Source: Minisyncoccota bacterium (GTDB taxonomy: Bacteria; Patescibacteriota; Minisyncoccia; Phycocordibacterales; UBA9973). From it: DNA of 64,000 nt. The stretch spans positions 4,726 to 68,725 of the forward strand of contig JAGOQQ010000005.1 of NCBI GenBank assembly GCA_017991395.1, given 5' to 3'. Of this stretch, positions 4,823-54,558 are shown in pieces. How positions within the stretch are numbered: the first letter of the stretch is position 1; every line of letters starts with the position of its first letter. Under the pieces are notes generated by a model, which made no database searches, was not told the DNA's origin, and saw only the letters and a list, made by a program, of their open reading frames with translations. Both the position numbers and the translations under genes were made by a program.

Positions 4823-5020
4823 GGAGGATGAAGGAATCTTTCCTTGCAGGAACAGTATACCTTTTCGGTGGAGATGAAGGAATCGGTCACAAGTCTTTTT
4901 CTACTGAAAAAGCTCGCGACCCCGCCTCCCGCCGTCGCGGTCCGGCTTTCGATTCCTTCATCCCTCTCGCAATGATGATACAAAAAGACAGAGCGTTTAG
5001 CTCTGCCTTTTTGTTCATTG
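4823..5020. repeat. Array of tRNA-Trp 3'-end-derived fragments joined to conserved element-end sequences
   Basis: GGAGGATGAAGGAATC (4823-4838) is a direct copy of the tRNA-Trp acceptor and T-arm up to the T-loop. It is followed by the 29-mer TTTCCTTGCAGGAACAGTATACCTTTTCG (4839-4867), which recurs at 50578-50606. A second copy GGAGATGAAGGAATCG (4870-4885) is followed by GTCACAAG..TTTTTCT. An inverted partial copy lies at 4947-4965. Confidence 0.6.
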
Positions 5021-5091
5021 CGGGGGATGAAGGAATCGAACCCTCACCAAAGGTTTTGGAGACCTTCGTTCTACCACTAAACTAATCCCCC
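5021..5091 (-). tRNA. tRNA-Trp (anticodon CCA)
   Basis: Manual fold: acceptor gggggat/atccccc, anticodon stem aaggt/acctt, loop ctCCAaa, T-arm gaggg-ttcgatt-ccttc. CCA is not encoded. Confidence 0.8.
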
Positions 5092-5517: not shown

Positions 5518-5600
5518 GCGTCGGTGGTAGAGTGGTCAATTACAACAGACTGTAAATCTGTCGGCTTCGGCCTACGTAGGTTCAAATCCTACCCGGCGCA
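5518..5600 (+). tRNA. tRNA-Tyr (anticodon GTA)
   Basis: The acceptor is gcgtcgg/ccggcgc with one G-U pair. The anticodon loop is ctGTAaa. It has a long variable arm and the T-arm gtagg-ttcaaat-cctac. Confidence 0.8.
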
Positions 5601-5604
5601 CAAT

Positions 5605-15969: not shown

Positions 15970-16042
15970 CCACCCGTAGCTCAGCTGGTAGAGCACTCGA
16001 CTCTTAATCGATTGGTCGTTGGTTCGATTCCAACCGGGTGGA
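15970..16042 (+). tRNA. tRNA-Lys (anticodon CTT)
   Basis: The acceptor is ccacccg/cgggtgg. The D-arm is gctc-agctggta-gagc. The anticodon loop is ctCTTaa. The T-arm is gttgg-ttcgatt-ccaac. Confidence 0.8.
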
Positions 16043-16468
16043 CACGAATTAAAAAGAAGAACTTCTTCTTGTTTTTAGTTCGTGTCCAAGCCGCAGTAAT
16101 GTTTTTGTTTGAGCGAAGCGAAAGGCAAAAACCACGAGGCGGGCTCGCGAAATTTTTACGTCAGTAAAAATATTTGTGAGGACACGTAGTAGCAAGAACT
16201 TCTTCTTGTTTTTAGTTCGTGTCCAAGCCGCAGCGATGTTTTTGTTTGAGCAAAGCGAAAGGCAAAAACCGCGAGGCGGGTGAGAAAGTGTGGGACACTT
16301 TCGCAAGACCTTTTGAGAATTTTTGTGAGCGAGCGAAACAAAAAGTCCAAAAGGTGTACAGAATCTGTAAGATTCGCGAAATTTTTACGTCAGTAAAAAT
16401 ATTTGTGAGGACACGTAGTAGCAAGAACTTCTTCTTGTTTTTAATTTAAAAAAAGATAGTAACAATAT
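16043..16468. repeat. Tandem ~140-bp direct repeats (about 2.5 copies) with hairpin modules between two tRNA genes
   Basis: aagaacttcttcttgttttta occurs three times (16063-, 16203-, 16420-). gttcgtgtccaagccgcag..gtttttgtttgagc.aagcgaaaggcaaaaacc.cgaggcggg occurs twice. cgcgaaatttttacgtcagtaaaaatatttgtgaggacacgtagtagcaag occurs twice. The first hairpin pairs with the tRNA-Lys 3' end (tggacacgaa / ttcgtgtcca). Confidence 0.7.
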
Positions 16469-16550: not shown

Positions 16551-16976
16551 CAACGAAAAATAATGAACCCAATGCGAGAGCATTGGGTGATTTATTTTTA
16601 TGCTCGGGAGAGGACTTGAAAGCCGGAGGCGGTATACAAGACGCAGCGAAGCGAAGTGCTTGTCGCCGAGGCGGGGTCGCGAGTACTTAGTAGAATTTGA
16701 GCTGGCGAAAAATTATACTTAGTAACTCGTGACCAAGACACTGCTTGGCTTGCGCGAGAGGACTTGAAAAGGTTCTCCCATATTTTTGTGAGCCTGCGAA
16801 CAAAAATGGGAAACCTGTACTGCTCCTGTAAGGAGAAAATCCTCTCCTGGACACTATCCCAAATTCTCGTGACCAAGTCCCCTCCCGACGACCACTGAAA
16901 TTATACTTAGTAACCTGTGACCAAGACATCCCAATACGCAAATTAAAAACACCCGAACTCACGTACGGGTGTAAAT
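16551..16976. repeat. Non-coding repeat region carrying inverted T-loop-truncated copies of the tRNA-Leu(TAG) 3' end and other short repeats
   Basis: The terminator hairpin cccaatgcgagagcattggg is followed by gctcgggagaggacttgaa (16601-16619), the rc of the T-arm and acceptor. A second copy gcgagaggacttgaa lies at 16755-16769. attatacttagtaac.tgtgaccaagaca occurs twice (16713-, 16897-). Confidence 0.55.
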
Positions 16977-45774: not shown

Positions 45775-47880
45775 TTATGCAGACGTGCCTAAAATTTTTC
45801 GGAGTACGTCTTCGGGGACTTCTTTTCTTGTTTCGACTTTTGGTGGTGTGTGGTCGCTTTGTGGTGTAGAAATTTTCTCTTCACGTGTATGCACTGAAAA
45901 ACTTTCCTTTATTACTGTTTCTGAATTTTGTGTTTTTTCATCTCTGCGTACTGGAGTATCTTTTTTCATCACCCTACTCAAAAGTGCTTTGAGTTCTGCT
46001 TTTTTTTCTGCGGTTGGTTCTTTTTTTGAGGTATTGTTGAGAGTAGAAAGTGAGATTGATTCTACAGATTTTGTGGAAGTAGACACAAGAGACCCCTGTG
46101 TGACGGTGTGTTCAGTATTTTTCGTGTGCACTACATTTGATGTTCTTGGTGCCTCACTTTTCTCAACTCTTGGAGCTTGTGTTTCAAGAACACTCAGTAG
46201 CTCTTTAAGTTTTGGAGAATGTGGAGCATGTGTGTGCGCTGGCCGAGGATTGACTGACGCTGGCTTTCTCACATCTGTATTAGTGTGATTTTTGAACTGG
46301 TGTGGTGCTGGTGCGACACGAGGTGTTGGCGCTGGTGTTCGCGGTGGTTCTGGCCGCACAACCGGGCGCTCGTGACTAGTATCTCTGTGTGGTTTTGACT
46401 GAACTGGTGTTTGAGTTTGAGGTTGTGGCTCTGGTCGTGGTGCGATATTTTCAGTGATAGGATTTCGAATTGCAGTTTCAATTTTGCCTTGAAATGGTTT
46501 TCGCATACCTTCAACTCGTGGAGCATCATACTCTTTTTTAACACCCGCATCCCTTTCTTTGAGATCCTTTTCAGATTTTGAACTATCGCCATGCCAAGAA
46601 TTGATTTCATTCTCCACTTCTTCTTTTGGTCGAGCATAATTTCTCCGTGAGGCGTCAATCATTTTGTCGAGATACACAAACTCTGGCTTCGGCCACGGTG
46701 CAAGCGTATGGGCAGAAAATGGCTTTGATGTCATCCCGCCGATCATGAGTCGAAGATAAATCTGCGCGAAACCGAGGTTGGTCAAATCTTGTGCGGTAAA
46801 TGTCGGCGCAAATTCTTTTTCAAAAATTTCTGCATCAGAAGGTCCAATTCTAAAGGTCACCATGCTTCCGACGTTTCCAAGAATCGCATCACGCACTTCA
46901 TCTACCATTTGAGTCACATACTGGTTTGCGACAGTAAGACAGAGCTTGTACTTTCGAGCCTCAGATAGAATTTGCGCAAATGATTCGTTTGCAAAGTTTT
47001 GAAATTCGTCCACATAAAAATAAAATGGAGGAAGCTTGTCGATTTCACTTTGCGAAATTTCAGCACGAGACATTGCCGCAAGATAAATTTTGGTTACAAA
47101 CATACCGCCAAGAAGATTCATATTTTGTTCGCCAATTCTTCCCTTTGAAAGATTGATGATAAAAATCTTTTTCTTGTCCATGATTTCTCGAATATCAAAA
47201 GACGATGTGGGCTGGCCGATGATATTTCTAATCAACGGATTGAGTGTATATTGTCCGATTTTATTTTGAATTGCCGGAGTTGCCTCAGCCGCAAATTTGT
47301 CAGTATATTTTGCATATTCATCAACCCAAAAAGATTTTACGGCTGGGTCTTTGATATTGTCTACAATTTTCTTTCGAAATTCTTTGTCTGAATACATTTT
47401 GTTCACACCCATCAATGTAGATCCCGGATACTCAATAAGAGCAAGAAGTGTATTGTTCAAAATGTATTCCATACGCGCACTCCATGCGTCTTGCCAGATC
47501 TTTTTGAAAACACTCATGAGCCCAGACACCACAAGGTGGCGTTTGTCTACACCAATGTCTTCGAGTACATTAAATGACATCGGATACTCTGTATCAAATG
47601 GGGCAAAATAAATCACATCGTTGATTCTATCTTCAGGTACATACTCAAGTGCTTTTTCTGCAAGTGATCCGTGCGGGTCAATCACACACACACCTTCTCC
47701 ATTTTGGATATCTTGAATAACCAGATTTTCAAGCAGTGTTGATTTACCTGTACCAGTCTTACCGATGATGTACATATGTCGAGTACGGTCCTTGGCTTGA
47801 ATACCAAATTTTGTTTTCTTATTACGAAAATCCGTTTCGCCGAAGTATGTTACTTTTTTATCTGGATCAAAGTCGCTCAT
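45775..47880 (-). CDS. VirD4/TraD/TraG-like coupling-type ATPase (DUF87 AAA-like) with a long Pro-rich disordered C-terminal tail
   Basis: Walker A is IIGKTGTGKSTL. Walker B is FYFYVDEFQNF. The C-terminal ~280 aa are P/T/K-rich. Confidence 0.55.
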   Translation of the reverse strand: MSDFDPDKKVTYFGETDFRNKKTKFGIQAKDRTRHMYIIGKTGTGKSTLLENLVIQDIQNGEGVCVIDPHGSLAEKALEYVPEDRINDVIYFAPFDTEYPMSFNVLEDIGVDKRHLVVSGLMSVFKKIWQDAWSARMEYILNNTLLALIEYPGSTLMGVNKMYSDKEFRKKIVDNIKDPAVKSFWVDEYAKYTDKFAAEATPAIQNKIGQYTLNPLIRNIIGQPTSSFDIREIMDKKKIFIINLSKGRIGEQNMNLLGGMFVTKIYLAAMSRAEISQSEIDKLPPFYFYVDEFQNFANESFAQILSEARKYKLCLTVANQYVTQMVDEVRDAILGNVGSMVTFRIGPSDAEIFEKEFAPTFTAQDLTNLGFAQIYLRLMIGGMTSKPFSAHTLAPWPKPEFVYLDKMIDASRRNYARPKEEVENEINSWHGDSSKSEKDLKERDAGVKKEYDAPRVEGMRKPFQGKIETAIRNPITENIAPRPEPQPQTQTPVQSKPHRDTSHERPVVRPEPPRTPAPTPRVAPAPHQFKNHTNTDVRKPASVNPRPAHTHAPHSPKLKELLSVLETQAPRVEKSEAPRTSNVVHTKNTEHTVTQGSLVSTSTKSVESISLSTLNNTSKKEPTAEKKAELKALLSRVMKKDTPVRRDEKTQNSETVIKESFSVHTREEKISTPQSDHTPPKVETRKEVPEDVLRKILGTSA

Positions 47881-49418: not shown

Positions 49419-49525
49419 ACTTATGACGTATAAAGAGGCATAATCTTACACCTCTTTATGTGCGTAAATATATAATACCATGCAATCAAAAAAGCCCCCC
49501 TTATAAGGAGGCTACAATACACAAA

Positions 49526-50116
49526 TTAGTTCAGATTTGGGTCAGATGGGAAATTGGCAAGCAATTTATACTTATCCCCCATAGAACGAAGAACATCACC
49601 CCAGAGATTTTCTGGCGCATAGTCAAAGATCCATTTTTTCACGTCTGCACGAATGGAGGGTGAGCTCTGATGTACTATCCATGATTTCTCACTAATCTCA
49701 AACTCCAGCTGATGTGGCTCCCACCCAGCATACCCGGCAAAAAAGCGAATCTGATTTGGCCTAACCTGTTTAGTGTCAATCAAAAACAACAGCTGATCAT
49801 AATTTCCACCCCACCATAAATTTTCACCAAGCATTACTGAATTTTCAAGCTTCTTACCAATAGTGTGAACATAATACAGTGTGTCGTCTTCTACAGGACC
49901 ACCAAAATAAAGTTGTGCATCAATGAAGGGAAATTCATCAACTGCTTCGTTTACTGACTTATCAGTAATTTTGTTAAAAATAAACCCTCTTGTTCCCCAT
50001 TGGTCAAACTCTGTAATCAAGACTGTTGAGCGTGCAAAATATGAATCAATCAAGAATGGCTCAGCGATAATAATTCCTCCAACTGAGGGCTTCGGTACAC
50101 TATTTCTTTTTTCCAT
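49526..50116 (-). CDS. YqgE/AlgH family protein (DUF179)
   Basis: It contains GGPVEDDTLYYVHT and YAGWEPHQLEFE, which are characteristic of the family. Confidence 0.65.
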   Translation of the reverse strand: MEKRNSVPKPSVGGIIIAEPFLIDSYFARSTVLITEFDQWGTRGFIFNKITDKSVNEAVDEFPFIDAQLYFGGPVEDDTLYYVHTIGKKLENSVMLGENLWWGGNYDQLLFLIDTKQVRPNQIRFFAGYAGWEPHQLEFEISEKSWIVHQSSPSIRADVKKWIFDYAPENLWGDVLRSMGDKYKLLANFPSDPNLN

Positions 50117-50212
50117 TGTGGGTGATTTTTGGAGGTTCGAGACACTTTTTCTTGATACTACACTTTTTTAAAAAAGGGTCAAATAAATGCGTCCGCAGTA
50201 CGGCGGACGCAT

Positions 50213-50503
50213 TTATTTGAAAACCCCTTCACTCTTCAATGTTTTTCTCTTCTTTTCAACACCCCATCTGTATCCACCAAGTGTTCCGTCTTTTCTGATC
50301 ACCCGATGACACGGTACAACTATTGGTAGATTATTTTTTCCGATGGCTGTCCCTACTGCGCGTACTGCTTTAGGTTTGCCAATCTTTTTTGCAATGTATT
50401 CATATGTGCATACACTTCCCTTTGGAATTTTCAAAAGCTCATTCCATACTTTTTGCTGGAATGGTGTACCTTGAGAAAATATTTTTTTCTGAGATGGGGT
50501 CAT
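50213..50503 (-). CDS. ogt: methylated-DNA--protein-cysteine methyltransferase, DNA-binding/catalytic domain
   Basis: The active-site motif is IVVPCHRVI. A terminator hairpin, aaataaatgcgtccgc...gcggacgcatttattt (50175-50212), follows it. Confidence 0.75.
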   Translation of the reverse strand: MTPSQKKIFSQGTPFQQKVWNELLKIPKGSVCTYEYIAKKIGKPKAVRAVGTAIGKNNLPIVVPCHRVIRKDGTLGGYRWGVEKKRKTLKSEGVFK

Positions 50504-50880
50504 GGGTGAATGATATCACGAAAATACAGGACTCTCGACTACCGTCGCGGGTACTTCACTTATTTAGTACAGGACTCTTTCCTTACAGGAACAGTATACC
50601 TTTTCGATTTTCTCAGAGCACAGCTCTTCGTAAATAGCGAAAAGCTTTTCGAGTCCTGACGCAGAGTCTCCCAGACTCTGCTTACGGTCCACGCAAGAAA
50701 AAAGGCCTAACAAAAGTTAGGCTCTTTTTTCAAAGTGTGGACTTCTCTACACAAGAATTGAATCAACAGGATGATACCAAAAAGAGCTATAAATGGCCTA
50801 ATGTCCTGCCTAGAAACTTAGAAGAGGAAGAGTTATTCTGGAAACAGGTATATGATGATGTAATAGAGTTAGCATCGATA

Positions 50881-51708
50881 CTAAGAGGAGAGTAATTTTG
50901 TCATTTTGATTTTTAAGGACACTAAACCATCTTTAAAGATAAAGTCACCATACAAACACCAATTAGTTCCTTGTATGGCATTTTGTATCGTGGTACGGAC
51001 AACTTGAAGAGATTGTGTTTCTCCTCTCACACTCAAATCCAATGTTTTTATTATAAACGTTGTCTCTTTGCAATAGGGTTTTTCAATACAACTTATCCTT
51101 GTGTAGTTCTGATTAATTAGTACCCTGTTCAGTCTTTTCTTAATTTTAAATATTGAAAGTTGTTCAACTTTTGTTTCTTGAGGTGAAAGTTTTTTAGGTC
51201 CAAGAATATCTGCAAGTATTAAAATATCATCATAAACTTTTTCCCAAAACTTCCCAATGTGCACACAAGGATCATCATCTTTTATACAGTACTTTTCCCT
51301 GTCAGCTTCTTTGATCTTTTTTCTCTTTCTTAATTTATATGGTTTTTCATCTTCAGATTCACGAGGTGGCACCCATTCAGAACCATCATTATATAGTGCA
51401 CGCTTTGGAAGATGTCCCTCTAGGCACGAATAGAAAATGAGTACTCTTCCTTCATCTACAATTTTAGAAGTTGCTCTCATTCTTCTTTTGCATTGGAGAC
51501 AGTATATATCTTCGGGAATAACAGTTCTAGATAAGAGGAGAGCTTTTTGAGCAAGTCGTTCTCTTACAAGCTTCAAGTAAGTAGGTTTGGCTTTCCACCT
51601 TTGATACAAATAGGAACTTTGCTTAATGTGTTTCTTTTTCTTTGCGAAAATTATAGTTTGGGAATCATATAAATCATTGAGATATTTTTCTTCTTGTTGC
51701 ATATACAA
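50881..51708 (-). CDS. hypothetical protein (island cargo), with a possible Zn-ribbon-like CxxC...C..H element
   Basis: It is a 275-aa ORF. It contains YCLQCKRRM...FYSCLEGH. It is lysine-rich. It has its own upstream region. Confidence 0.45.
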   Translation of the reverse strand: MYMQQEEKYLNDLYDSQTIIFAKKKKHIKQSSYLYQRWKAKPTYLKLVRERLAQKALLLSRTVIPEDIYCLQCKRRMRATSKIVDEGRVLIFYSCLEGHLPKRALYNDGSEWVPPRESEDEKPYKLRKRKKIKEADREKYCIKDDDPCVHIGKFWEKVYDDILILADILGPKKLSPQETKVEQLSIFKIKKRLNRVLINQNYTRISCIEKPYCKETTFIIKTLDLSVRGETQSLQVVRTTIQNAIQGTNWCLYGDFIFKDGLVSLKIKMTKLLSS

Positions 51709-51904
51709 ATGATTCAGTATATACCGAAAAGAGATTACTTATATTTTATTGTATAAACATATCAGAAACGAGTACTTTTAGTTTTCCACAATTATTTATA
51801 CGCAATTCACATTTCAAATAAAGTGTGTTATATTATATATATCTCATCTACCCATGGTAGAAGGAGCAAAGAGGCCGTTACCCTATGGGTAGCGGCCTCG
51901 GTCA

Positions 51905-52408
51905 TTATGGATTAAATTTCATAAAGTTTGAATACTCCTTCTGAAGTTTCTTTTTGTCATGTTTATACACAATTGGATAGGCCGTCCATGGCAAAATATA
52001 ATTTTTTCGCTTATTTAAAACAACTAAATATTCCCAATCTCCAAAACAAAGACATATTCTATACTGAATGCCCTTTTTGGTATTTCTTTGATTCTCCCAC
52101 ATTTTCACATTATTCACATTACTGCTATTTTCGATTATTGGTTTTGGCCACTTAATTCGCTCGCATCTTGATTCATCTAAGTTTCTTTGAAGTTCTGGAA
52201 CTTTTCCAGAAGTTGTCATATGCCAGAAAGTTGCTGCCTTGCCTTCAATTAGAGGATATTTTTTCAACCCTAACTTATTACCATTATATATTGGTCTTGA
52301 TTCAATAAAATCTTGTACAAAAGATTTGTAAACCGCATCAACAAAATCATCCCAATTGCTAGAATGGTGAATAAGTAATATAAGGTCTGGTAAGGTTAAG
52401 CTGCTCAT
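51905..52408 (-). CDS. hypothetical protein (island cargo), downstream partner of the DUF3800 gene
   Basis: The ORF starts 8 nt after the DUF3800 stop at the Met in MSSLTLPDL. The track ORF extends to 52447. A terminator hairpin, ggccgctacccatagggtaacggcc, follows it. Confidence 0.45.
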   Translation of the reverse strand: MSSLTLPDLILLIHHSSNWDDFVDAVYKSFVQDFIESRPIYNGNKLGLKKYPLIEGKAATFWHMTTSGKVPELQRNLDESRCERIKWPKPIIENSSNVNNVKMWENQRNTKKGIQYRICLCFGDWEYLVVLNKRKNYILPWTAYPIVYKHDKKKLQKEYSNFMKFNP

Positions 52409-52416
52409 CAATAAAA

Positions 52417-53130
52417 CTACTCGGGTGAATAAAATGAAGGCTCCCAAAAGAATATGTTAAATTTCTCCTCTCTCACCAATGTCGACTTTTCAAGAGAATA
52501 CCCGGATCGTTCTTCGATTCTTTTAATTAAGATTTTCTTGGCTTCGCTTTTTCTTTCACTTCTTTGGGAATATGAAATTGCACCTATTAAAAGATCTGTT
52601 AGTTGCATAATTCCTGTTTCGTTGGATCTTATAATTTGTGTCTTTTTAATGATTTTATTATCGAAATCATACATCGAATTAGAAAGAATATTATGTAATT
52701 CCTTTACTTTTGATCCACCCTTTGTATCCTTAATATCCAAGTAAATATTATATTTAGAATCCGGACTTAAAATCACTTTTAACATATTAAAATATGTTTT
52801 GTAATAGAAAACATCATGTGTTTGTTTATATTGAATGTGATTAAGTTTGTTTTTGTCTTTTATCACCACAATACGAAAATGTAAGTCATCATTATCAAAG
52901 AAGTAATCAATGAGGTCTAAATAAAATTCTTTTTTCACAGTGGAAACTTTGGTCCACTTAATTTCGAAAACGGGGTTAAAATTATGTCGAATTTTTATCT
53001 CCTTGATTCTAGAGTTAATTTCTCTGATTTTCTCTTTAGGACACCAAATAGCACCAAGTACCATGTGTTTTTGGTGATCATTCTCCAAGTGACAACTTTC
53101 ATCACAATAAATATTGTATAAGTTTCCCAT
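52417..53130 (-). CDS. DUF3800-like protein (island cargo)
   Basis: The N-terminal motif NIYCDESCH resembles the conserved (I/L)Y.DESG start of DUF3800 proteins. It is 237 aa. Confidence 0.45.
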   Translation of the reverse strand: MGNLYNIYCDESCHLENDHQKHMVLGAIWCPKEKIREINSRIKEIKIRHNFNPVFEIKWTKVSTVKKEFYLDLIDYFFDNDDLHFRIVVIKDKNKLNHIQYKQTHDVFYYKTYFNMLKVILSPDSKYNIYLDIKDTKGGSKVKELHNILSNSMYDFDNKIIKKTQIIRSNETGIMQLTDLLIGAISYSQRSERKSEAKKILIKRIEERSGYSLEKSTLVREEKFNIFFWEPSFYSPE

Positions 53131-53224
53131 GAGGTGATTATACCACCTTCATTTGATTTAAATAAAATTACTTAAAACTATTTTAAATCACTATTTTTAG
53201 AATTTCCAAACGGACCTTGTCAAG

Positions 53225-53257
53225 ACAGGAAAAAGAGCTATTTCTAGCTCTTTTTTG
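53225..53257 (-). terminator. terminator hairpin immediately 3' of tRNA-Ala
   Basis: On the minus strand it reads agagctagaaatagctct plus a T-run. It is similar to the hairpin acagagcgtttagctctg plus T-run just 3' of tRNA-Trp (4995-5019). Confidence 0.55.
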
Positions 53258-53330
53258 TGGACCGTACAGGACTCGAACCTGCCACCCCATCATTGCAAAT
53301 GATGTGCTCTACCAGATGAGCTAACGGCCC
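53258..53330 (-). tRNA. tRNA-Ala (anticodon TGC)
   Basis: The acceptor is gggccgt/acggtcc. The D-arm is gctc-atctggta-gagc. The anticodon stem catca/tgatg has loop ttTGCaa. The T-arm is gcagg-ttcgagt-cctgt. Confidence 0.8.
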
Positions 53331-53493
53331 AGAATTTAATTTCAAACTTTATCTTTCCTCCCCTCTTTCACGATACACCACAGACGAGGTTGGGAGGTAA
53401 GGCATTGAAATCCACCCCAATAGTATACCCATATTTATATTTTTTGCAATATATATACACCCTCATCAATACTGCTCATGATATACTATTTAT

Positions 53494-54558
53494 ATGGACG
53501 CATTCATTCAACAAACTCAAAAAAAGTCACATACTTTTCTCGTGGTCACGTTTTTGTTAATTATATTTTTTGCATTTATAAGTATTATCGGCAGTATTGC
53601 TGTTGGTAGAAAAATAGACTCATTACAACGAAAAACCCTCATCACGCGTGCTGAAACCGCATCACTTGCTATCAATACTGAATACCTAAAAAAACTTGCA
53701 GGGACTCCGGAGGATATCAGATTGCCAGAATATCAATCACTCAAAAAATTGATGTTCGATCTCAAACAAAAAAATTCTGATGCACGCTTTGTGTATCTCA
53801 TGGGACTGCGTGGTGAAAAACTATTCTTTTATGTTGACTCAGAACCTACCGACTCCAAAGAGTATTCTGCTCCAGGTGATATCTATGAAGAAACATCACC
53901 TGAAGAAATTGAGAATTATCTAAAAGGAACCGCATTTGTGCAAGGTCCTTATGAAGATCGTTGGGGTAAATGGGTCACCGCAGAAGCACCAATATTTGAT
54001 ACAAACGGACAAACTATCGGAATCATTGGTGTCGACATCAGTACAACAATCTGGCGAACTGAAATATTGTTTGCACGAATAATGATATCTGTCTCTGCTG
54101 CTCTTTTGACTGTATTCTTGCTCATTTTGTATATGTATCTCGAACGATCAATAAAAAGTTTGGACAGTCTCAAGCAAACCAAAAACACACTTGAAGCTCA
54201 GAAGGCAGTATTGAGCGAAGCAGAAGATGTGGCAGGACTTGGTAGATTCACTCTCCTTCTTGGTAGTGGCACAATGACATGGGACAAAACAATGTATACA
54301 TTTTTTGCAATCCCAGATAATACAAAAATCGATAGAGAATTATTTGAATCTTACATCGACGAAAAAGACAGACAAAAAATACGGCAAGTGTTTGACACTC
54401 TCACAAATGGTAGCGAAAGTCGGGCAATACTTGAATACACAATTTCACACAATGATACACACCGCACTCTCCTTAGTATCATGAAAGCATACAAAGGTCC
54501 ACAAGGTGAAATCACTCGCATTGTCGGTACTACTCAAGACGTATCCAACAGACATTAA
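53494..54558 (+). CDS. membrane sensor protein with a periplasmic Cache-like domain plus a cytoplasmic PAS domain and no output domain
   Basis: It has two TM segments flanking a ~150-aa extracytoplasmic region. The C-terminal PAS-like fold is GRFTLLLGSGTMTWDKTMYTFF...GEITRIVGTTQDVSNR. Confidence 0.5.
   Translation: MDAFIQQTQKKSHTFLVVTFLLIIFFAFISIIGSIAVGRKIDSLQRKTLITRAETASLAINTEYLKKLAGTPEDIRLPEYQSLKKLMFDLKQKNSDARFVYLMGLRGEKLFFYVDSEPTDSKEYSAPGDIYEETSPEEIENYLKGTAFVQGPYEDRWGKWVTAEAPIFDTNGQTIGIIGVDISTTIWRTEILFARIMISVSAALLTVFLLILYMYLERSIKSLDSLKQTKNTLEAQKAVLSEAEDVAGLGRFTLLLGSGTMTWDKTMYTFFAIPDNTKIDRELFESYIDEKDRQKIRQVFDTLTNGSESRAILEYTISHNDTHRTLLSIMKAYKGPQGEITRIVGTTQDVSNRH

Follow-up and report, generated by a model that had tools for sequence, protein, structure and literature searches.

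An Integrase-Less tRNA-Ala Islet in a Candidate Phyla Radiation Chromosome Carries a Gene Pair Related to RlfA/RlfB (PDC-M04) of Phage P1

A small islet located directly at the 3′ terminus of a tRNA-Ala gene, on the chromosome of a member of Candidatus Pacebacteria within the Candidate Phyla Radiation (CPR), is described here together with the pair of adjacent genes that it carries, gene A for a DUF3800 protein and gene B for a smaller partner. The DNA analyzed, called the window throughout, is a stretch of 64,000 nucleotides (nt) from contig JAGOQQ010000005.1 of assembly GCA_017991395.1. A preliminary description made from the letters alone had pointed to an AT-rich islet starting at the tRNA-Ala 3′ end, and both parts of that claim were borne out. 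The tRNA-Ala(UGC) was called at 53257-53330 on the minus strand (ARAGORN; Rfam tRNA, 62.6 bits), and the islet (50743-53255; 2,513 nt) begins directly at its 3′ end. The GC content of the islet is 31.9% compared with 38.8% in the window, which places it below all 1,230 same-length windows and 3.4 standard deviations under their mean, with local values across the islet down to 0.26-0.34. The features of the islet and its borders, in the order met when reading away from the tRNA, are as follows.

53256-53262, minus strand: proximal junction repeat GTCCACA (last tRNA bases plus 2 nt), read from the sequence and compared with empty sites
53229-53255, minus strand: islet-borne hairpin AGAGCTA-gaaa-TAGCTCT followed by TTTTT, read from the sequence
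53180-53222, minus strand: promoter-like region upstream of A, from the sequence and a promoter scan
52417-53130, minus strand: gene A, RlfA-like DUF3800 protein of 237 amino acids (aa), PDC-M04A, from Pfam, PADLOC and P1 homology
51905-52408, minus strand: gene B, RlfB-like partner of 167 aa, PDC-M04B, from PADLOC, phrog_16230 and P1 homology
51868-51899, minus strand: G+C-rich hairpin GAGGCCG...CGGCCTC plus TTT after B, read from the sequence
50881-51702, minus strand: open reading frame (ORF) C, Zn-ribbon protein of 273 aa from an ATG (275 aa from an upstream TTG, end 51708), from the ORF list and a phmmer family alignment
50737-50895, plus strand: 52-aa antisense ORF at the distal islet end, from BLASTP and inverted repeat I3
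50736-50762, minus strand: distal junction, where the final ~24 nt of tRNA-Ala appear to recur in degenerate form (TTCAATTCTTGT..AGTCCACA), from local alignment and empty sites L058 and L054
50697-50730, both strands: ancestral bidirectional tRNA-Ala terminator, outside the islet and displaced by 2.5 kb, from a terminator scan of both strands
50525-50694, minus strand: resident structured element of the tRNA flank, outside the islet, from BLAST and covariance model matches and covariation

Gene A encodes a protein that begins MGNLYNIYCDESCH, and a Shine-Dalgarno-like GAAGGTGG lies ahead of it. Farther upstream, a perfect TTGACA (53217-53222) and the TTGGAA/TAAAAT combination reported by the promoter scan (53209-53180) are consensus matches only, and their number is not above chance. 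The DUF3800-like character and NIYCDESCH-type start recognized in the preliminary description agree with a match to Pfam DUF3800 (PF12686; E 5e-13, 50.4 bits compared with a gathering cutoff of 21). More than 7,800 homologues of A exist across many phyla at 57-67% identity, and in a family alignment of 49 homologues the invariant positions include N6, Y8-C9-D10-E11-S12-C13-H14 (NxYCDESCH), D132, K134, D135, Q176, and D179. These residues match the DE...QxxD signature defined for DUF3800 (PMC7736814). The AlphaFold (AF2) model of A has a mean predicted local distance difference test (pLDDT) score of 89.3, and the top 23 PDB matches found with Foldseek are all RNase HII, H2, or HIII (E ~1e-5, probability 1.00, template modeling (TM) score 0.45-0.51), while no PDB chain is related to A at the sequence level. 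This RNase HII-like fold agrees with the published RNase H fold for DUF3800, a domain that the literature counts as RNase H-like and connects with effectors of type VII retrons, accessory genes of Cas12a2/a3, and noncoding RNA motifs (PMC7736814, PMC10910872, PMC13594972, PMC5737381). We predict that A is a nuclease, its fold being RNase HII-like and its acidic motif intact.

The start of gene B lies 8 nt past the stop of A on the same strand, with the ATG backed by gene calls and by the alignment of homologues, and here too the coordinates and gene calls agree with the 167-aa partner that had been read from the sequence. All 334 detected relatives of B are ~165 aa long and lack Pfam domains; their invariant residues include F61-W62-H63, C82-E83, W87, W104, and T142-A143. 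The AF2 model of B is a confident one (pLDDT 92.3). Its fold has no significant counterpart in the PDB (best E 0.2) and matches only an uncharacterized homologue in BFVD, and B has no PDB relatives at the sequence level. Structure prediction, one of the analyses proposed in the preliminary description, gave an RNase HII-like fold for A and a fold without PDB counterpart for B. The hairpin at 51868-51899 is likely the operon terminator, to judge by its G+C-rich stem and TTT immediately after B; the terminator attributed earlier to the operon is supported to that extent, but a strict terminator scan did not flag the hairpin.

The pair had previously been treated as belonging to an uncharacterized family. 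Instead, both proteins are homologous to those of phage P1: A shares 51.5% identity over 96% of its length with P1 RlfA and P7 RapA (E 2e-71; tblastn, GenBank phages), and B shares ~30% identity over 92% of its length with P1 RlfB and P7 RapB (29.7% for RlfB; E 6e-14; tblastn). A search with defense-system hidden Markov models (HMMs), which had also been proposed, was run with PADLOC and returned both components of the candidate system PDC-M04. A matches PDC-M04A (PDLC04353) with E 3.8e-96, residues 1-231 aligning to profile positions 1-228 of 232, and B matches PDC-M04B (PDLC04357) with E 3.8e-56 over profile positions 1-158 of 162. B also matches phrog_16230, which carries the PHROG label "replication protein". 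On these alignments, A/B is nearly certainly a member of the RlfA/RlfB family of P1 (RapA/RapB of P7), which is the PADLOC candidate PDC-M04. Phage homologues are not confined to P1 and P7, since Bifidobacterium phage Bbif-1 carries both A and B, and A is also present in Mannheimia and Moorella phages.

Six other contexts of the pair were compared with the window. A precedes B in all six, with a gap of at most 12 nt or an overlap, and the pair has no other recurrent partner. In small genomes, two of the pairs are surrounded by housekeeping genes. Of the other four, one lies between metabolic operons, another on a Paceibacterota chromosome, a third at a contig start, and the last in a defense cluster. 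This cluster, on an unrelated metagenomic contig (L015, 1181-7486), is a defense island with an unannotated ORF, an AbiEii nucleotidyltransferase, NERD, a MazG-like protein, and a helicase of the Schlafen-group-3 type, and the rlfA/rlfB-like pair comes after these genes. The neighborhood analysis that the preliminary description had called for was in this way only partly favorable to it: the two genes are always together and one of the six contexts is a defense island, but the others are solitary and none contains a relative of ORF C.

The borders of the islet were established from the sites in which it is absent. The preliminary description had placed the far end at direct repeats of the tRNA T-arm. 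The 10-mer in question, GAGTCCTGTA, has three copies in the window (the tRNA T-arm, 50525, and 50568) where ~0.05 would be expected by chance, and the repeats are real and nonrandom. They do not mark the islet border, however, and the far boundary had been drawn ~220 nt too far out: the copies at 50525 and 50568 sit within a resident element that follows tRNA-Ala in islet-free contigs as well, which rules them out as attR. A metagenome scan with the last 26 nt of tRNA-Ala as the query listed 80 contigs (L018-L097), and in at least 12 of them a conserved noncoding element of ~150 nt lies 15-50 nt after the same tRNA-Ala with only a terminator hairpin between them. The same element in the window is 2,563 nt from tRNA-Ala, the only displaced one among the strong tRNA-Ala copies, and BLAST of the element from the islet-free contigs aligns to window positions 50566-50742. 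In L018, which is among these contigs, synteny also holds 5′ of the tRNA, with the order tRNA-Ala, Ddl, UvrC kept. The junction sequences of two empty sites and of the window, with a slash at the junction, read as follows.

L058, empty site: ...GGTCCACA / CGTTGAAAAAG...
L054, empty site: ...GGTCCACA / CTTATAAAAAAGG...
Window, at the tRNA: ...GGTCCACA / AAAAAGAGCTAG...
Window, at 50742-50736: ...GAAGTCCACA / CTTTGAAAAAAGAGCC...

From the comparison of empty and occupied junctions, it follows that the insertion, which separated the end of the tRNA from its original terminator, added ~2,513 nt together with one GTCCACA copy. The distal junction is at ~50736-50743, and 50525-50742 is resident DNA. 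The terminator at 50697-50730 matches the position of the terminators directly after tRNA-Ala in L054, L058, L090, and others, and the hairpin at 53229-53255 would now serve as a terminator-like element after the tRNA in place of the ancestral one. The apparent tRNA-end copy at the distal border ends in an exact GTCCACA (50736-50742), the exact repeat being only 7 nt long and the remainder degenerate; what looks like a decayed copy at 50736-50762 fits an old integration into the tRNA 3′ end. Both flanks are ordinary chromosome, with an MGMT-like DNA-binding domain protein, YqgE/DUF179, and an extracytoplasmic function (ECF) sigma/anti-sigma pair on one side and a Cache/PAS protein, Ddl, and UvrC on the other. 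No phage genes were found in the islet or its flanks by the ORF list, Pfam, and PHROG, and none of A, B, and ORF C matches a recombinase or integrase family in Pfam, NCBIfam, or PHROGs, in keeping with the earlier statement that none of the three resembles a recombinase. We conclude that 50743-53255 is nearly certainly a horizontally acquired insertion of ~2.5 kb at the tRNA-Ala 3′ end of this Candidatus Pacebacteria chromosome and, because it has no integrase of its own, that it is decayed or was passively recombined.

The site does not appear to be a recurrent cargo hotspot: besides the window, 0 of the 80 listed contigs has genes between the tRNA and the element. In L048 and L092, GlnA or GH3 genes lie on the 3′ side of the tRNA. 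Of the closest relatives, L006 extends only 720 nt past Ddl and the L007 contig ends inside the tRNA, and a metagenome scan anchored on YqgE found no empty site. Exact-protein look-ups returned only short Logan contigs that are 100% identical to the window and break in the tRNA and at 50605-50713. Independent assemblies (L001-L005, L017, L007, L144) likewise break inside tRNA-Ala (53277-53288) and at 50605-50713, and in another organism an assembly break lies 53 nt upstream of an rlfA-like gene. These repeated breaks may reflect population heterogeneity or may be induced by hairpins.

ORF C is separated from the hairpin at 51868-51899 by an A/T-rich spacer of 196 nt, and the 273/275-aa frame does carry the CxxC...CxxxH element noted in the preliminary description of a separate 275-aa protein. 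A word-indexed search with ORF C returned only itself, yet a full phmmer search over 1.84 billion representatives gave 70 relatives at E ≤ 1e-3, mostly of ~350 aa, which rules out that it is an orphan. The family motifs are an N-terminal YYxDxYDRxTI, a CxxC...CPxxH ribbon, DRxKYC, and a C-terminal TNWRL...YRLG. In the window protein C68, C71, and C93 are invariant, H97 aligns with the CPxxH consensus of the family, and the C-terminal NW motif is present; the second ribbon that the family usually carries (CxxCG...TCxxCG) is missing. ORF C has no match in Pfam, PADLOC, PHROG, or NCBIfam, no Pfam model falls on its relatives, and the family was found in no IMG/VR contig. Its sole informative context is L138 (6001-7964), where the gene after a full-length relative (355 aa) encodes an AbiEi_2 antitoxin-type domain. 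Judged from these alignments, ORF C is a real gene, a shortened and diverged member of an uncharacterized Zn-ribbon family, and is a passenger separate from the A/B cassette; 0 of the six other A/B contexts contains a relative. The 52-aa antisense ORF at the distal end shares a 16-aa FWxxVYDD..L..IL with the middle of ORF C (the 51226-51249 region; 10 of 16 identities, E 1e-5 in a single comparison). It is probably a relic rather than a gene, and it may be the relic of a rearrangement or inverted duplication.

For the function of the cassette we propose the following scheme. A would be a metal-dependent nuclease with an RNase HII-like fold that uses the conserved acidic residues D10-E11, D132/D135, and Q176xxD179. 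B would be its obligate small partner, which regulates or targets the nuclease or keeps it inactive. Together they would form a translationally coupled conflict module of the anti-phage or abortive-infection type and, upon invasion, would cleave hybrids of RNA and DNA or nucleic acid with some other structure, for example replication primers or R-loops. We consider the combined reading, in which an insertion brought in a nuclease, B as its partner, and a conflict module, to be somewhat better than an even proposition, while the anti-phage role of A/B taken by itself is about evenly balanced. The suggestion in the preliminary description that the islet is defense or abortive-infection cargo gains from the matches to defense-candidate HMMs, but it stays a prediction. 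PDC systems are candidates, and their definition came from genes located inside BREX, DISARM, and type I restriction-modification (RM) loci (Payne et al. 2024 preprint, 10.1101/2024.01.29.577857), and the P1 copies of the pair are accessory genes, both rlfA and rlfB being nonessential when knocked down by CRISPR interference (CRISPRi) (PMC10695390).

Several observations weigh against the conflict-module reading. Of the six additional contexts, just one is clearly a defense island, and in the others the pair is solitary among housekeeping or metabolic genes. B has no recognizable fold, so the role given to it above is a guess. A literature search found no mention of PDC-M04 and no experiment on anti-phage activity of PDC-M04, RlfAB, or stand-alone DUF3800. 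In P1, where the end of rlfA is the start of rlfB, the genes follow repL behind the C1 operator Op55, and a C1-controlled operon beside the lytic replicon points to expression during lytic growth and not in the lysogen, for which a phage-side role is at least as fitting as host defense. At the level of the islet itself, the lack of an integrase and an exact flanking repeat of only 7 nt are further points on this side.

The C1 operator of P1 is also the chief argument for the likeliest alternative, in which A/B assists the replication of a phage or plasmid. The module would process RNA primers or R-loops at an origin, and the islet copy would be the remnant of a prophage or integrative plasmid that has since decayed. 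In P1 and P7 the pair is annotated as "possibly associated with lytic replication", and its genes sit beside repL/oriL behind the C1 operator; this annotation is the source of the PHROG 16230 label on B, and the P1 label is positional only. RNase H chemistry would suit primer processing, and the presence of the pair in phage Bbif-1 and of A in the Mannheimia and Moorella phages fits such a module. The nonessentiality of both genes for P1 under CRISPRi argues the other way, as does the replacement of rlfA/rlfB by other, unrelated cargo in P1-like plasmids (PMC6906374), and no origin, replication, structural, or integrase genes lie nearby in the window or the six other contexts. We regard a replication module as unlikely. 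Compared directly with rlfA-rlfB of P1 (rapA-rapB of P7), the islet pair has the same two families in the same order and the same tight coupling, but it has no C1 operator, repL/oriL, or structural genes and is chromosomal, at a tRNA, in a CPR bacterium.

Tight coupling and strict co-occurrence would equally be expected if A/B were a selfish addiction module of the toxin-antitoxin (TA) kind, with A a toxic nuclease, B its neutralizer, and no dedicated anti-phage role; cells that lost such a module would die, which would maintain it. The occurrence in different phyla at 57-67% identity, a sign of frequent transfer, and the solitary insertions among housekeeping genes, typical of TA loci, fit such a module, and a DUF3800 protein is the presumed toxic effector in retron type VII. 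The order with the putative toxin first and the sizes of 237 and 167 aa are nevertheless atypical for type II TA, and neither A nor B matches a TA family in Pfam or NCBIfam, which together make addiction improbable in our estimation. It is very improbable that the region is ancestral and was lost elsewhere, with A as a housekeeping RNase H substitute, for although CPR genomes are reduced and often lack canonical enzymes, and the site in the nearest relative (L007) is hidden by a contig end inside the tRNA, the region has the lowest GC in the window, the adjacency of tRNA and element is kept in at least 12 diverse contigs and at other tRNAs of this genome, a junction repeat is present, and the best homologues of A and B are distributed over unrelated phyla and over phages.

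Comparison with characterized or catalogued systems helps to place the conflict module proposed here. The likeness to PDC-M04 extends to near full-length matches of both component HMMs and to adjacent genes on one strand, but the defining copies are embedded in BREX, DISARM, or type I RM loci, whereas the islet copy is solitary at a tRNA. The retron type VII effector, the TPR-DUF3800 protein of Cas12a2/a3 loci, and Csx32 of Cas13 CASK loci share with A the RNase H-like DUF3800 domain with its N-terminal DE and C-terminal QxxD, and all of these systems occur in conflict-system contexts. In contrast to them, the islet has no reverse transcriptase, msr/msd RNA, CRISPR, TPR, or kinase, and the partner of A is RlfB. 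Retron type VII was looked for specifically, and no reverse transcriptase ORF or domain was found in the islet by the ORF list and Pfam. None of the 11 DUF3800-associated RNA motifs in Rfam (DUF3800-I to XI) was detected either, tRNAs being the only cmscan matches at E ≤ 5 over 49500-54500 and at the gathering threshold over the whole window. RNase HII and the catalytic subunit of RNase H2 are the best structural matches of A and have a similar DEDD-like acidic arrangement; A differs from them in being unrelated in sequence to any PDB chain, in its extra conserved Cys/His cluster (C9, C13, H14, C30), and in its nonhousekeeping position. With integrase-type tRNA islands bounded by attL and attR, the islet shares its place against the tRNA 3′ end, its deviant composition, its absence from related sites, and an apparent tRNA-end copy at the far junction, but it lacks an integrase or excisionase, has an exact repeat of 7 nt, and is only 2.5 kb long.

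This locus places the RlfA/RlfB (PDC-M04) cassette of P1 in the CPR as a minimal, integrase-less tRNA islet and supports the view of DUF3800 and RlfB as a self-contained mobile module rather than a phage replication function. It offers a compact natural example, two genes with a putative promoter and terminator of their own in ~1.4 kb, and what is learned of the pair would also bear on DUF3800 proteins associated with retrons, Cas12a2/a3, and Cas13.

The element beyond the distal junction, which was found while mapping the islet boundary, may be an undescribed RNA family in its own right. We built a covariance model on 11 copies, and the copy in the window (50557-50694) reaches 100.5 bits with it. 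Most of the 30 model matches lie 15-230 nt downstream of a tRNA on the same strand, and a few have no called upstream tRNA or lie farther off, up to 5.4 kb for one marginal match. The family members are ~130-170 nt long and lie directly 3′ of tRNAs on the same strand; the 5′ arm is complementary in reverse to the end of the adjoining tRNA, and the 3′ end copies that stretch directly. The members found in the window and elsewhere are the following.

50525-50694, minus strand: window copy, downstream of tRNA-Ala
16720-16857, plus strand: window copy
16271-16391, plus strand: window copy
4837-4901, minus strand: window copy
Other loci: L018, L023, L024, L025, L029, L037, L045, L054, L058, L065, L074, L075, L077, L089, L090, L095

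Read in the sense of the tRNA, the order of parts is a terminator, GTGGACCGTAAG, a 9-base-pair hairpin, CGTCAGGAC(G/T)(A/C)GAAAAG, a variable hairpin, and one or two 3′ modules. The window element has two such modules, each ending in GAGTCCTGTA, and its 3′ end directly repeats the T-loop/acceptor strand of the tRNA. The 5′ arm is complementary in reverse orientation to the 3′ end of tRNA-Ala, with 20 of 20 bases matching in the window and the arm split by the hairpin. Four helices are supported by the alignment, in which 93.4% of cells are paired compared with 39-50% in slid controls and 15 pairs have changes on both sides, whereas the controls have 2-7 such pairs. In 500 shuffles, values as high as these occurred 0 times. 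On the tRNA-sense strand there are 18 cells of the G-U type compared with 5 of the A-C type. The element matched no Rfam family, and a literature search on it found nothing relevant.

The weaker copies in the window follow tRNA-Leu(tag), tRNA-Lys(ctt), and tRNA-Trp, and copies elsewhere follow tRNA-Val and tRNA-Lys. Behind tRNA-Leu (TGCTCGGGAGAGGACTTGAA) and tRNA-Trp (TGCGAGAGGGATGAAGGAATCGAA), both the antisense arm and the copy at the 3′ end correspond to that particular tRNA, and behind tRNA-Lys only TGTCCA of the antisense arm is recognizable. Because statistics of contiguous inverted copies across all tRNAs are weak, the arm being offset and split, we relied on the covariance model and on direct reading. 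The element follows tRNAs for Ala, Val, Lys, Leu, and Trp, and probably Tyr. Tentatively, and with a likelihood that we put somewhat short of even, it could be a new class of tRNA-trailer RNA that controls 3′ maturation or stability through a long duplex or acts as a tRNA-end mimic or decoy, or else a set of tRNA-end "landing pads" for recombination of integrase-less cargo such as the RlfAB islet. The possibility that the element is the RNA partner of the cassette was ruled out, as the element occurs without A/B in at least 12 loci and was not found in L010, the sole A/B context searched with the covariance model.

Behind several tRNAs of the window, a terminator hairpin is followed by an inverted copy of the last 15-20 nt of the tRNA (Leu, 18 of 18; Trp, 16 of 18; Tyr, 15 of 18). 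The loci are these.

16551-16625: locus with this arrangement
4948-5025: locus with this arrangement
5518-5601, plus strand: tRNA-Tyr

As read from the sequence, a single hairpin of great length could form from the 3′ strand of the tRNA, the terminator, and the trailer. Downstream of tRNA-Lys(ctt), at 16040-16440, two tandem repeat units of ~180 nt (...TGTCCAAGCCGCAG...GAGGCGGG...TTTTTACGTCAGTAAAAA...GAGGACACGTAGTAGCAAGAACTTCTTCTTGTTTTTAGTTCG) look like duplicated trailer elements.

Two further features lie near the islet. A 701-aa VirD4/TraG-type coupling protein is encoded 3 kb away (45775-47880, minus strand), with TrwB_AAD_bind, TraG-D_C, and HerA-like P-loop domains and a long Pro/Thr-rich tail. 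Between the YqgE-like and MGMT-like genes, at 50179-50220, is a near-perfect 21+21-nt palindrome (TCAAATAAATGCGTCCGCAGT/ACGGCGGACGCATTTATTTGA) that is probably a bidirectional terminator.

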